Positions 2,795-16,463 of a DNA stretch of 40,899 nucleotides are shown here, piece after piece. The position numbers and the translations under genes were made by a program. The first letter of the stretch is position 1; each line of letters opens with the position of its first letter. The notes below the pieces were generated by a model. It was given only the letters and a program-made list of their open reading frames with translations, had not been told where the DNA came from and ran no database searches. This DNA comes from a virus (taxonomy: Duplodnaviria; Heunggongvirae; Uroviricota; Caudoviricetes), in the IMG/VR virus record IMGVR_UViG_2778261393_000006, one strand, 5' to 3'.

Positions 2795-5387
2795 TTGCAT
2801 ATTCCTTAGCCCAGCGGGGCAGTGATAATGTCTTAATAGCTGGCCATTCATCGGTATTCAGGCAGTCAGACAGGGTTCGCAGATTGCGGTGATATTCCTG
2901 TTGACCTGCCAGTTTTGCTTCTTCGCCCATCATGAAAATTTCAACCGGATAACGTCCGCATTCAATAGTTGTGCTGGCAACCAGAAAAACGAAAGTTGGC
3001 TGCACTCCAAACAGTGCTTCATAACCGTCACTGTAGAATGCATCCTGAACGTGATAGCGGTAGTCGTAATAAGCGGTTTTGAATCGTTGAATATCCGCCG
3101 TAGTTTTCACGTCCATGATCCAGTGAAATTCAGGGATAATTTTGTCCGGACGGCACCGACACAAAATTCCTGTTTCAGGATCTTCCCAGTAAATTGATGA
3201 TTCAGCGTGTCCGGCGCTTTCAACAAGCCATTGCCCCAGCGGCAAAGCCATAACGCTTTGATACATGAGTTCAATTTTCCGGCCTTCTTCCGCAGTGATA
3301 ACCGTTTTTCCTGTGCTTGCGCATTCCATCAGAAACGCTTTCTCTTCTTCTTTTCCGGCGTTTGTACGGCGGTTAAATTCAGGTGCTACGATAAAGCGGT
3401 TACTGAATTCTTCCGGTTCAAGTACCCGGCAGTGGAAAGCAGTTCCTAAATCGAGCGTTTTTGTCTTTGTGGTGTCCACGGGGGCATTTTTACGCCACAA
3501 ATATAGTGCCGGAGTATCAGCAATGTCATCGAGCTGAGACTTACTGATACCGGGACCCGCGTGGTAATTCTCATTCGAAATTCCGTAATAAATACCTGGC
3601 TCTATGTCTTCTACGATTACGGGATCTGCGACTTCGCCAGTTTCATCACTGCAATCGTGATGCGGATCGCTGCCAGCATTCTCATTGTGCGGATGTTCAG
3701 CGCCTTCCATTTCCTCCGGATCATTTTCCTTAGCTTCAACCTGACTCTCTTCATCGAATGTTTCCTGGTATGTTGCGTCGCCCATCACCGCACCACAGTC
3801 AGGGCAGTTATCCCCGCCAGTCTGGCCGCAGGCATTGCAGGCTATTTCCGGTTCCTGTTGCACTACTGGCTCAGGTTGATTCATATCTGGGCTGGTTTTT
3901 TCCGTTTCTGGCTGGTTCTGGTACACACAATCGCGAGTCTGGATCCCCTTTACCCATTTCGGATCGTTCGGGTCGCTAATTCCGTCAACAAATTCACCAC
4001 GTGATGCAGCAAGCAATTTATCGGCATCGACAGGATTTTTTGATGGAATGTTTTTCCGGGCTTCATGGAGTTCTGCCCGCAGTTCCTGATATTTCGCATC
4101 AACAGAATTTACCTGTGACTGAGCATCCAGCGGCTGCGTGTCCTGATGATGTTCAGTTGCGTCCGGTTCCATTGTTTCAGCCTCTCCCTGTTCAACTGCC
4201 GTTGTTCCAGATGGTTGCGGTTTTTCTTCATCATCCTGTTTTCCTTCTTCTGTTACTCGCTGCGGCATCGGGGCAGAGGAGCGACCGCAGGCAATATCCA
4301 CGATTTCCGGATCAGGGTTGGCATGATCGGTTTCAGTCAGTACTTTGTTCAGATATTCAGTGACGTGCGCGGGGATGACCTCGATCCCAATTGGTGCTTC
4401 TTTTACGGACGCAACCACGATGGCGCGGGAATAATCCAGCCCGCCAGGCATGGTGATGAATTTGTCGCGGAAAACAGAAAAGGGCGGTTTATTTTCAGCG
4501 ATAATTTCCTCAATGCGTTTAGCGTGTGCCGGATGAAGGTTATAGATGTCCAGATCCATTGAACGGGCCAGTACGCCAGTGGCTACGTCGCGCGCCAGTG
4601 ACGTCAGATCGTGTACGAAACCTTCGCCGCGATCGGTGAGGTTTCCGCCGCCAGCATTAGCACCGGAAGCCGTGCGAGTGATGTGTGAAACACGATTACC
4701 CTTCATCCACTCTTTTGTCAGCAGTCCTCGATCGGTGTAGTCAGCGTTCAGGTATGCTTCGAAAAAAGCAGTTATCAGTCCCAGGTTTGAATTACCAGGA
4801 TTAGGGAAAACTTTGTCAGTGTCACGAACCAGTTTGTGGAGTTCGCGAATTTCCAGCGGGTCGAGCAGGCTGGTTTTGTGGGAAACAGCCAGGGCAGTAA
4901 CAGCCGGTAGTTCTTCAGCCCGAGCAATGTGTAATGCCTGGAGTCCGTCGCGTGAAACGTGCGTTACCGGTTTTTCGCTGCCGTGTTGAGCAAGCCAACG
5001 AATGGGCAGTTCCTGGCCAGAAATTGGGAGTAGCATATTCTCCTCAATCTCAGTCATGTCTTCGCCGTTGACGTTGGTATTGCCTTGATAATGAGCGTTG
5101 TCTGGTGCTGCTCCCGGTTTTAGTTCCCATGTCATGGAGTCTTTGCTGAGTTGATAGCGTTCACTCCAGGTAAAATCGATCTCACCTTCAGCGGGCAGGT
5201 CATTAACGACAGGAAAATTCGTGGCAACAGCTTTAAAATAGCTGCTCAGTTTTTTACCTGACTTAACGATCAGGTAGTCCAGAGTGGCACAGGTCGATTC
5301 AAAATCGTTGCTTGCCCACAGGACGACGTCAGGTTCACCGGATGATTTTTTCGCTTTCCGTAACAGGAAGAGTGGTTTTGTGCTCAT
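2787..5387 (-). CDS. recE: Exodeoxyribonuclease VIII RecE
   Basis: 866-aa ORF, length and sequence consistent with RecE; acidic low-complexity middle region and C-terminal nuclease domain; immediately upstream of recT. Confidence 0.9.
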
Positions 5388-13750: not shown

Positions 13751-14524
13751 TTAGAACTGTTCATTGCCATCGAGGTTAGGTAGCATAATTTTTTCAATCA
13801 AGGCGAGAGCCTTTTTGTCCCGGTCAGCGAAGTATTTCGGGGCATATTGCGGCAACCAAATATTGTTAAAATGTTCTTTGAAATCTGCTAAATATTCATT
13901 TGGGTACAGCCTTGCAGGGTATACGCGACCATCGGGATATTCATGGTCATAGGTAGGGAATGTTTTGGGTTCTACGTTTCTATTATCTCTTAACCATTGT
14001 GAAAATACTCTTCCTTGTGAAATGTCAGGAACCATTTTTTCTGGGAGTGTGTACCCTGCTTGTTCAAGAGGTGCAACCAAGTTGAATGTCAGTTCATTAA
14101 GAATAGAAAAGTGCGTGTGAGGAATTCTACTACGATTAACCATGTACCGTTTTAAATGTACAGGCATTTCTGCTGTAGTTCTTTCCCCTGACATCCATTC
14201 ACGAACCCATCTTGAAACCTGGACTGCAAATTTGGGCGATAGCCACTGCGCTAGATTAATAGCGATGTCAGGATGCACCCATGTCCCTTGGTTTTCAGGT
14301 CTTCCACCTTTAAATGATTGAATTAACTCCGATATGGGAATTCCCATATCGCGTGATAATTCGTCAAAAAACTCTTGAGTAGTTTTGAGTCTAGTGTAAT
14401 CAGAGAGCAGTTTGCCCGCAGTTCTACACATTGATGTGGCGTTTATGTAACCATCTTTGGCACGTAAATGTATTATTTCGCCGTCAATTTCACGAGAAAT
14501 CAAAGATAATTGAAAGGATGTCAT
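13751..14524 (-). CDS. KilA-N domain protein
   Basis: 257-aa ORF; N-terminal region (INATSMCRTAGKLLSDYTRLKTTQEFFDELS...GTWVHPDIAINLAQWLSPKF) fits the KilA-N/APSES DNA-binding domain pattern; GAGGAA upstream of ATG. Confidence 0.65.
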   Translation of the reverse strand: MTSFQLSLISREIDGEIIHLRAKDGYINATSMCRTAGKLLSDYTRLKTTQEFFDELSRDMGIPISELIQSFKGGRPENQGTWVHPDIAINLAQWLSPKFAVQVSRWVREWMSGERTTAEMPVHLKRYMVNRSRIPHTHFSILNELTFNLVAPLEQAGYTLPEKMVPDISQGRVFSQWLRDNRNVEPKTFPTYDHEYPDGRVYPARLYPNEYLADFKEHFNNIWLPQYAPKYFADRDKKALALIEKIMLPNLDGNEQF

Positions 14525-15046
14525 TGAAAATTCCTCAAGTTGGAGAGTTCTGGAACATTAAGGCGAGGTGGCAGTAATGCACCATCTGTAATCTTTTGAT
14601 ACTGACGTAATCGGACCTGATGTGCAACGCCTTGCAAGTATGTAACTCATTGAAAACGATCATTTTTATCTATTGACATCAAATGGCAAACTGTCATTGT
14701 GCGGCTATGGCAAGTGGCAAATGCTTATAAATCATATGGATATAAATAGTACAGAAAGAGTTGTTTTCTCTAGGATATGAGTATACGCCCAATGCTGATT
14801 GGTTGAATTTTGTTCTTGTTTTAAAGGGTAAGAGTTTAAAGTGTTGGCAGTGATGTATTGGATAGTTAGAATTGCTGTGGGTGCTTGAGGCTATCTGCCT
14901 CGGGCATGAACACCAAAGGTAGATAGAGAAAAGCCCCAGTTAACATTACGCGTCCTGCAAGACGTTTAACATTAATCTGAGGCCATATCTATGCGACACA
15001 TAGAGATTAGCCTCTTACGGACCGAAAGGTCAAGGAGAAGCAGGCT

Positions 15047-15172
15047 ATGAAGCAGCAAAAGGCGATGTTAATCGCCCTGATCGTCATCTGTTTAACCGTC
15101 ATAGTGACGGCACTGGTAACGAGGAAAGACCTCTGCGAGGTACGAATCCGAACTGGCAGACGGAGGCTCTGA
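15047..15172 (+). CDS. Hok-family type I toxin homologue, C-terminally truncated/divergent (possibly decayed)
   Basis: Hand translation MKQQKAMLIALIVICLTVIVTALVTRKDLCEVRIRTGRRRL (41 aa); first 37 residues match my memory of HokD/RelF, then the frame diverges and stops early; upstream leader resembles hok mRNA 5' elements; coordinates approximate. Confidence 0.5.
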   Translation: MKQQKAMLIALIVICLTVIVTALVTRKDLCEVRIRTGRRRL

Positions 15173-15254
15173 TTCGTAGACTACTAATCTGAGTAAAAGA
15201 CCCAGCGGGGAAAGAACCACGCCGGGACTAGTTAATAAGATATTTATAGCGTGG

Positions 15255-15596
15255 CTATTCTTTTTTTGCGGTATAGACTTTTTCGCCTGAGAAGTCTGGA
15301 GCTACCCAAAAGTTAATATTAAACTGAGCATCATCGCTTAGTTCAACACGGTGCCAGTATTGTGGTGGGCTTGTTGCAAAAGCGCCAGCATTAATGACTA
15401 CTTTTATCTCCGGTTCAGTAGCATTCTCATCAGCAAAACCATAATATGTTACAGTACCTTCCATCACGCATAACTGTCCAAAAACACCTGCTGCTGTATT
15501 ATGATGTGTTAATAACGCTGAAGGTACGTTCTCTTTTGTGAAGAACGGAGTTGAGCGTTTGATTACCCAGTCTTTAGGAATTCTCTTGTGTGTCAT
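15255..15596 (-). CDS. DUF1971 family protein (YeaR/TehB C-terminal-like)
   Basis: 113-aa product (start at internal ATG preceded by GGGAGGTGG); motif KRSTPFFTKENVPSAL...GAFATSPPQYWHRVE...FNINFWVAPDF resembles YeaR family from memory. Confidence 0.55.
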   Translation of the reverse strand: MTHKRIPKDWVIKRSTPFFTKENVPSALLTHHNTAAGVFGQLCVMEGTVTYYGFADENATEPEIKVVINAGAFATSPPQYWHRVELSDDAQFNINFWVAPDFSGEKVYTAKKE

Positions 15597-16463
15597 AACC
15601 ACCTCCCATAAAACATGCATTATAAATGCACCTTTTTGAGGGTTATGTCAAGCTGTTATGAAACACATAATTGATATGTTGATTAGAGGAGAAGATAGAA
15701 TCAATATGGTTGTTTTTCGTATAACTATTTGTTTTACTTTTAGTTTGTGCATTCTGTGTGTTAGGAATAACTTATTAAAGTTTAACTAAAAAATCTCGAT
15801 ATAGTCCGCATAGATTACTGTTACTGAATCTTATTGTGTGCATTAGTTGTGTTCTGAAATTTCAATTTAATTACTTATGATATATTTTTAACGATAAATG
15901 TTTTCCGGGTGAAAGACAGTGGGGGATGAGATAAGCAATATATCATTAATCTTGATTATTTCCAGGATGCCTTTACTGTGCATATAAATAAATCATATAC
16001 GCATCAAATAATGTAAAGGCATCCTTTTAGATATATCTTATCAAATGTTAATGATTTGAGTGGGAAACATGATTCCAGAAACTAATCATGCGGCTACTTT
16101 ATAAAAATAATGCCCATATAAAACAGCCAGCGAAAAGGATTACGGATAAAAAAGGAGCGAGATGTGCATAGTTGTTATTTTCCATGTTTAACCACCTTAA
16201 ATAATTGATGATGACGGGATGTGCATCTGTAATGCTTTTGTTGAAATGTTATGATAAAAAAGAACTTTTTCATAACATTAAAATGTAATTTATCTAATCG
16301 TTTTTAATAATAAGTGTTGTATTTCTATCCTTGTATCAGCTATTTGATATGTAGTGTTTGTTCATGTTATGTGGAGCTTTACACCATAGCCAGTTTATTT
16401 ATACTTTATTCGTCAGCCTGAACAACTGGCATCTGCTGCACTGCGCCATCGAGAGATTGAGAA

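Follow-up and report, generated by a model that had tools for sequence, protein, structure and literature searches.

The window analysed here is a 40,899-nucleotide (nt) stretch of DNA from a virus assigned to the Caudoviricetes (IMG/VR record IMGVR_UViG_2778261393_000006), and the element in question is a type I toxin-antitoxin (TA) locus of the hok/sok type in which the reading frame of the Hok toxin is truncated. The open reading frame (ORF) of the toxin encodes a peptide of 41 amino acids (aa), MKQQKAMLIALIVICLTVIVTALVTRKDLCEVRIRTGRRRL, precisely as it had been read in an earlier description made without database searches (hereafter the original prediction). Over residues 1-37, the peptide shows 100% identity to HokD, a protein of 51 aa (WP_000813254.1 / HOKD_ECOLI; CFT073, AVS0787), which bears out the 37-residue match to HokD/RelF noted at that time, and the four residues that follow, RRRL, come from a shifted frame. 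The Pfam profile PF01848 (HOK_GEF) matches residues 6-39 of the ORF with a score of 59.1 bits (cutoff 22; E = 3.2e-16), the match spanning profile positions 1-34 of 42. The native parts of the peptide comprise the N-terminal flank MKQQK, the transmembrane (TM) helix (residues 6-24), the hydrophobic stretch of which reads AMLIALIVICLTVIVTALV, and the segment TRKDLCEVRIRTG. At the DNA level, the identity is 96.7% to the hokD locus of CFT073 over the leader and codons 1-37, and 91.8% over 344 nt to the annotated mokW/hokW/sokW locus of phage 933W. Because the Pfam match, an Rfam match to the leader (see below) and 92-97% DNA identity to the annotated hokD and hokW/sokW/mokW loci all point to the hok/sok family, the identification of a hok/sok-type locus with a truncated Hok frame that headed the original prediction is confirmed by homology. 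Exactly the same 41-aa protein is present in RefSeq as WP_001445775.1, under the name "Hok/Gef family protein".

The truncation is the product of several lesions, which were read from alignments to four full-length hok loci. The frame is first shifted by the loss of 1 nt after position 15156, so that translation continues as GRRRL and terminates early at TGA 15170-15172. Two further nucleotides, whose loss would have brought the frame back, are missing after 15172; next come a GAA>TAA change at 15185 and a deletion of 3 nt after 15191, and hok's ancestral TAA stop codon is still found at 15194-15196. The change at 15185 also affects the TadA editing motif TACG that has been described in hok genes (PMC5630033): the motif now reads TACT (15182-15185), an in-frame TAA has been created, and Tyr47 is lost, its codon being out of frame. 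As a result, the 41-aa ORF does not retain a complete periplasmic C-terminal region (about 27 residues, with the second Cys or the editable Tyr position), and the net charge of the C-terminal flank goes from -2 in full-length Hok to +5. The divergence from CFT073 is very unevenly distributed along the locus. There are 4 substitutions and 1 indel in the 169 columns of the leader alignment and a single substitution in codons 1-37 (111 nt), versus 19 substitutions and 7 indel columns in the 70 columns of the tail. Thus, the 5' two-thirds form the intact portion, and the last third of the hok coding sequence (CDS) is decayed. This contrast between a nearly unchanged 5' part and a scrambled tail could be due to selection, to gene conversion by other copies of hok, or to a tail that was imported after it had diverged.

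The damage extends beyond the CDS. Similarity to all hok loci ends at ~15224, and the sequence beyond this point is the flank of the DUF1971 gene that is found in other prophages without hok. Judged from these alignments, position ~15224 is a recombination junction at which the 3' end of the hok transcription unit was replaced and the fbi element and the native terminator were removed, a loss that the original prediction did not contain. In the full-length loci (n = 3), the element CCUCAAYGCACCC, located 33-60 nt after the stop codon, pairs with the 5' end of the transcript, GGGUGCUUGAGG, with energies from -27.6 to -31.0 kcal/mol, and a terminator follows. For the window, the best duplex within 400 nt downstream has an energy of -23.9 kcal/mol, compared with a shuffled mean of -22.0 +/- 2.9, so that no fbi was detected in this range. 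In the predicted minimum free energy (MFE) fold of the full-length mRNA of AVS0787, nt 1-12 are paired with nt 375-387, a closure that is seen in no predicted fold of the window transcript. An alternative fbi located further downstream was also considered, but none is found within 400 nt, and the folds point the same way for each of the four 3' ends used. The window also has no copy of the native terminator CCCGCTTCGGCGGGTTTTT, and a scan for terminator-like sites on both strands between 14700 and 15400 reported none. Finally, the GC stem that follows the hok stop codon is interrupted, with a predicted energy of -13.0 kcal/mol versus -17.7 to -23.6 kcal/mol in the full-length loci.

Upstream of these lesions, the regulatory parts are all recognizable (Table 1). 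The predicted hok promoter would place the transcript start at ~14879-14880, and its -10 hexamer is conserved in CFT073, 933W and strain 48. The ~170 nt preceding the ORF had been claimed to resemble the conserved hok leader; the motifs quoted in support of this are present, and the Rfam model RF01794 is matched along its whole length with 101.5 bits (gathering score 59; E = 1.5e-23). The leader has a fold z-score of -4.7. The tac element GGGUGCUU (14879-14886) pairs with AAGCCCC (14931-14937) in the ucb/anti-Shine-Dalgarno region, enclosing the first hairpin, and the predicted MFE structure pairs nt 1-8 with nt 53-59 of the window transcript at every 3' end tried. This tac/ucb stem is the outer stem of the RF01794 consensus. 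Of the RNA structures that the original prediction proposed to look for by folding, tac/ucb and fbi, the former is therefore present in the predicted folds and the latter was not found. RF01794 is named "sok antitoxin (CssrC)" but is modelled on the sense strand of hok mRNA, with a consensus that ends at the hok AUG and includes the tac/ucb stem; accordingly, matches to this model mark the hok leader rather than the ~70-nt antisense Sok, and strand annotation derived from Rfam would be misleading.

Within the leader lies a mok-like ORF of 19 codons, MRHIEISLLRTERSRRSRL, whose TGA stop (15048-15050) overlaps the hok ATG as ATGA. This ORF is identical in the full-length hokD locus of CFT073, and its ATG at 14991 aligns with the annotated mokW ATG of phage 933W. 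It has a Shine-Dalgarno sequence (SD) of its own, and its translation would reach the hok start, so that translational coupling to hok is predicted. In plasmid R1, translation is needed for the first 19 mok codons only, those upstream of the hok start (Le Rhun 2022, PMC9841398), so that the shortness of mok does not speak against function. In the window, the reading frame that corresponds in phase to R1 mok and overlaps hok stays open for ~63 codons, yet it offers no start codon (ATG, GTG or TTG). The overlapping mok-like frame of the original prediction thus survives as the 19-codon ORF, with an overlap limited to ATGA, and the longer overlapping frame is startless.

The antisense gene sok is intact as well. 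The predicted Sok RNA consists of a single-stranded 5' tail, a long hairpin and then CUUUUCUCU, folds with -28.7 kcal/mol (z = -4.9; 0 of 200 shuffles as good), and differs by 1 substitution from Sok of the full-length hokD loci (CFT073, AVS0787). Its predicted start at ~14997 coincides with the 5' end of the annotated sokW of 933W. The putative promoter scored below the threshold of the consensus promoter scan and was not reported by it; the site was placed by manual reading together with the sokW start. The gene has this predicted promoter and, as a terminator, a predicted hairpin followed by a U-run, and its RNA is complementary to the region where mok translation starts. The locus probably still produces Sok.

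Table 1. Features of the truncated hok/sok locus and of the adjoining DNA (positions in the window; SD, Shine-Dalgarno sequence).
Feature	Position	Strand	Basis
Predicted hok promoter, TTGGCA (14844-14849)-17 nt-TAGAAT (14867-14872)	14844..14872	+	consensus scan, 10/12 matches
hok mRNA leader	14879..15049	+	Rfam RF01794, full-length model match
Sok antisense RNA, ~69 nt	14929..14997	-	coordinates transferred by alignment from the annotated sokW misc_RNA of 933W
mok-like leader ORF, 19 codons	14991..15050	+	direct translation; SD GAGG 14979-14982
Predicted Sok promoter, TTGACC (15033-15028)-18 nt-TAATCT (15009-15004)	15004..15033	-	direct reading of the minus strand
Truncated hok ORF, 41 aa	15047..15172	+	ORF translation, Pfam, HokD alignment; SD AAGGAG 15032-15037
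Decayed tail of the ancestral hok CDS	15157..15196	+	alignments to full-length loci
Hairpin at the recombination junction	15199..15229	.	alignment and folds on both strands
DUF1971/TehB-like gene, convergent with hok	15255..15620	-	Pfam PF09313, E = 3.5e-26

The allele is widespread and strikingly uniform. The junction between hok and the DUF1971 flank was found in 104 of 5,426 complete E. coli genomes, 103 of the 104 copies being at least 99% identical, and the exact 41-aa protein occurs on at least 1,000 contigs, including contigs of E. marmotae. The locus is 100% identical in strain 7/2, where it lies in a prophage adjoining trkG and is annotated as WP_001445775.1, and in three sequenced temperate phages of ~38 kb, vB_EcoS-666R9, 673R7 and 613R10 (ON470614, ON470616, ON470590), in the records of which both the hok ORF and Sok are unannotated (e.g. 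L017, 2501-2901). The window is probably a phage of this type, present as a prophage adjoining trkG as in strain 7/2. Every one of the contexts retrieved, 8 from NCBI and 7 contigs from IMG/VR, has the same decayed tail and DUF1971 flank; the IMG/VR contigs were collected by a gapped junction pattern and all share the same 67-nt decayed tail. No version of the DUF1971 junction with an intact tail was seen among these 8 contexts and 7 contigs, and the exact junction 24-mer has zero matches in the species-representative genomes. The closest non-identical tail, that of strain 48, belongs to a normal 51-aa hok.

Some relatives with the same tail are eroded further. In two of them (L008, L011; ~2880-3126), the whole leader and Sok have been replaced and the ORF sits 118 nt behind a DUF1627 gene, and in a third (L023) a 93-nt deletion, corresponding to 14970-15062 of the window, takes away the Sok promoter, the leader ORF and the hok start. 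Another copy (L021) has a recombinant leader 5' end and promoter. Among the E. coli genomes with any match to the locus, the median number of matching places is 2 and the maximum 9; in strain 7/2 there are 4.

Comparison with known systems places the locus next to the hokD loci of E. coli prophages (CFT073, AVS0787), which occupy an equivalent slot in lambdoid prophages and are alike in the leader, the 19-codon ORF, Sok, the SDs and residues 1-37. However, the window has none of the following features of these full-length loci: the last 14 residues of the toxin (QTEVAVFTAYEPEE), the TACG codon for the editable Tyr, the strong 3' stem, fbi and the terminator. The decayed tail itself is closest to the hokW-type tail (TTCGTAGACTAC.AATCTGAG) of the hokW/sokW/mokW loci of the Stx phages 933W (AF125520) and Sp5. 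HokW has 51 aa and its gene has an fbi, in contrast to the 41-aa frame of the window, which lacks one. Furthermore, the leader ATG of 933W is in frame with hokW, so that MokW is an extended HokW, whereas the leader ORF of the window stops at the hok ATG; in loci of the hokW type (L004, strain 110; L016, phage 933W), a +2/-1 indel pair puts the leader ATG in the hok frame.

The hok/sok (parB) system of R1 shares with the window the promoter, the tac/ucb leader, an antisense Sok over the mok initiation region and a toxin of the Hok/Gef family, and its mok SD lies ~57 nt before hok, as in the architecture described here. It differs in its 70-codon mok, its 52-aa Hok and the tac/fbi closing stem with 3' processing that leads to delayed killing, the window having neither fbi nor the Hok C-terminus. 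hokD of K-12 (relF) is also naturally crippled, but in the opposite way: the 5' regulatory part is lost and the full-length toxin is kept. In K-12-type genomes, similarity to the window begins only at 15033, the leader and Sok being missing, and the leader-less copies L008 and L011 look like K-12 hokD. The locus is most aptly classed as a degenerate representative of the prophage-borne hokD/hokW group. Degenerate hok sequences are already a recognized class, and RefSeq already lists this very protein by its family name. K-12 hokD and other inactivated chromosomal hok loci have been reported (Pedersen and Gerdes 1999, as cited in PMC5630033), and a 2026 catalogue of hok genes, in which 40 aa is the cutoff for "non-degenerate", lists 5.1% of unique CDS as shorter than 40 aa and 2.6% as having internal stops.

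The evidence that Hok proteins require their C-terminus comes from R1 Hok, HokB and Gef. In R1 hok, 20 codons are one substitution away from a stop (codons 2, 5, 10, 11, 13, 16, 20, 24, 27, 28, 29, 31, 32, 35, 36, 38, 41, 48, 49 and 52); they were counted here from the R1 hok DNA, and the total agrees with the count in PMC9841398. Since 18 of these 20 possible premature stops have been recovered as loss-of-function mutations (PMC9841398), at least two of the stops at 41, 48, 49 and 52 must inactivate R1 Hok. The native sequence of the window allele ends at the residue equivalent to R1 residue 38, and the stops at 41, 48, 49 and 52 all keep more. Toxicity of R1 Hok is also abolished by M46I, Y48N, stop-codon read-through and a C-terminal FLAG tag (PMC9841398). 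In edited HokB, the C29-C46 disulfide is essential, and the periplasmic part of Gef has been reported as the toxic domain. The position equivalent to residue 46 is the editable TACG Tyr codon in HokC, HokD and HokE (PMC5630033). At the RNA level, the full-length mRNA of R1 is held by its tac/fbi stem in a closed form that is stable and cannot be translated, and that is opened only by slow processing of the 3' end; breaking one C-G pair of the 3' stem is sufficient for the active mRNA and toxicity to disappear (PMC9841398).

Taken with the anatomy described above, these data favour the view that the locus is an eroded hok/sok remnant in a Rac-like E. coli prophage, one that is most likely incapable of delayed killing. 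The parts for transcribing a hok-type mRNA and Sok are retained, and fbi, the native terminator, the strong 3' stem and the Hok C-terminus are lost; from this pattern we infer the loss of toxicity and of the killing function. Without fbi, the closed, Sok-resistant full-length mRNA could not form, and the transcript would be expected to fold straight into the open tac/ucb form that is bound by Sok. By the R1 model, the absence of the tac/fbi stem would leave the cell without a stable reservoir of toxin mRNA, and hence would make delayed, i.e. post-segregational, killing impossible. The effect of the single disrupted C-G pair in R1 suggests that the weakened 3' stem of the window yields an unstable message, likely to be a target of exonucleases. 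The peptide itself would be devoid of the periplasmic beta-strand region at the C-terminus and, with it, of the Tyr/Cys position through which the disulfide is formed. According to the positive-inside rule, a positively charged flank disfavours export, and the charge flip from -2 to +5 should hinder export of the C-terminal tail. The missing C-terminal region and the charge flip together make it likely that the 41-aa product is non-toxic or weakly toxic. The ongoing erosion in the same-tail relatives L008, L011 and L023 supports the decay reading. Of the two possibilities that the original prediction had offered, the decayed hok is favoured by the evidence over the shortened but still active toxin.

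Several observations nevertheless weigh against decay. The allele is frequent, and isolated, sequenced phages are among its carriers. The promoter, the leader, the mok-like ORF, Sok and codons 1-37 are almost unchanged relative to CFT073, and the contrast between this part and the tail is unlike uniform neutral decay, so that the 5' part could still be under selection or the tail could have been imported already diverged. The requirement for the C-terminus is known from R1 Hok, HokB and Gef and not from HokD, and all of the RNA structures are predicted. Many type I toxins are TM peptides of less than 41 aa, and saturation mutagenesis of HokC indicates that toxicity also depends on the TM region, which leaves room for a membrane-active 41-aa peptide. 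A shortened but functional TA system, in which the TM helix with its basic tail damages the membrane under control of Sok but without the fbi-dependent delay, for instance in lysis or phage release on induction, would be in line with these points and with the near invariance, across copies, of the promoter, the leader, the SDs, the leader ORF, Sok and the TM segment. The 41-aa ORF also passes the 40-aa cutoff of the hok catalogue, and hokW-sokW of the related Sp5 prophage is a working TA system that aids phage release (PMC8621323). Such a system is unlikely, as C-terminal truncations and point mutants of R1 Hok are non-toxic, the disulfide partner position is gone, the several independent lesions of the tail resemble relaxed constraint, the 3' stem needed for mRNA stability is weakened, and same-tail copies devoid of Sok and the leader, or of the start codon, show no sign of harm.

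Alternatively, the toxin may be dead and the cassette kept as a donor of Sok, acting in trans on hokD- or hokW-type mRNAs of other prophages and plasmids as a form of anti-addiction or cross-immunity. An intact Sok gene with its predicted promoter, one base away from Sok of the full-length hokD loci, the multiple matching places per E. coli genome and the stronger conservation of the 5' part compared with the tail would all suit this explanation, which is nonetheless quite improbable: the copies that are left with no Sok at all argue against strong selection for it, and the 5' conservation may reflect gene conversion or a recent origin, nearly all copies being at least 99% identical. It is similarly doubtful that selection maintains an fbi-less "minimal" hok/sok in active temperate phages, be it as a TM-only membrane toxin under Sok or as a Sok donor disarming the cassettes of competitors; if this were true, the invariant 5' two-thirds and the scrambled tail would reflect selection. 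The idea that the real product is a full-length Hok, with the truncation being an error of sequencing or assembly or being bypassed by programmed frameshifting, goes back to the single-base error mentioned in the original prediction, and the three consecutive rare Arg codons (AGA CGG AGG) at the shifted segment are the one feature of the sequence that might be cited in its favour. A one-base error is rejected because there are several lesions and because more than 100 complete genomes share the allele without a difference; the same DNA is found in 103-104 complete genomes, three phages and several metagenomic viral contigs. With four separate lesions, undoing the first deletion alone gives a product ending in GQTEALIRRLLI, which is not a canonical Hok. 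As for frameshifting, no slippery heptamer is present, and the conserved VAVF..Y tail is found in neither alternative frame. This explanation is therefore vanishingly improbable, and the preferred reading remains that of a decayed remnant.

The significance of the locus reaches little beyond annotation, given that the family is textbook material and the exact 41-aa protein already bears a name in RefSeq. The automatic label "Hok/Gef family protein" hides the missing C-terminus and the missing fbi, and counts of "active" hok genes, e.g. those made with the 40-aa cutoff, will include this allele. It also offers a clean natural example of how the mosaic junctions of prophages erode type I TA cassettes from the 3' side. 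Should toxicity of the 41-aa peptide be demonstrated, the peptide would delimit the smallest active portion of HokD.

The DUF1971/TehB-like gene beyond the junction is convergent with hok, as the original prediction had stated. Each of the 8 NCBI places retrieved has it next to the 41-aa ORF, although in L013 it is uncalled, and it is outside the TA system even though it always travels with the truncated hok. In L013 (CP070403.1), the alignment is shifted by an indel near 15267, in the T-run lying within the DUF1971 gene close to its 3' end, and the gene is missing from the annotation, which indicates that this gene is also decaying in some lineages. The hairpin at the junction is predicted to fold with -15.5 kcal/mol (z = -2.7) on the plus strand and with -18.9 kcal/mol (z = -4.5) on the minus strand, where it is followed by UCUUUUAC; in its minus-strand form, it is probably the terminator of the DUF1971 gene. 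Prophages without hok (L005, L006; ~2950-2990) have a hairpin downstream of DUF1971, GAGACCCGTCGGGGATAGCCCTGCCGGGTCTGA, that resembles the stem following the hok stop codon, GAGACCCGGCGAGGGATAAATCCCTCGCCACCTCTGA. This short shared hairpin sequence may have been the site of the truncating recombination or may itself be an older remnant of hok.

On the other side of the locus, divergent from hok, a minus-strand gene (13751-14524) encodes a protein of 257 aa with a KilA-N domain at its N-terminus. PADLOC models gave zero matches to the 41-aa peptide and to the DUF1971 protein. The PADLOC BstA model matches residues 119-238 of the 257-aa protein (E = 3.2e-21), and a precomputed Pfam match to BstA_C exists in identical loci. 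By these matches, the neighbour is a BstA-family prophage abortive-infection defence protein, the RefSeq name of which is only "KilA-N domain-containing protein".

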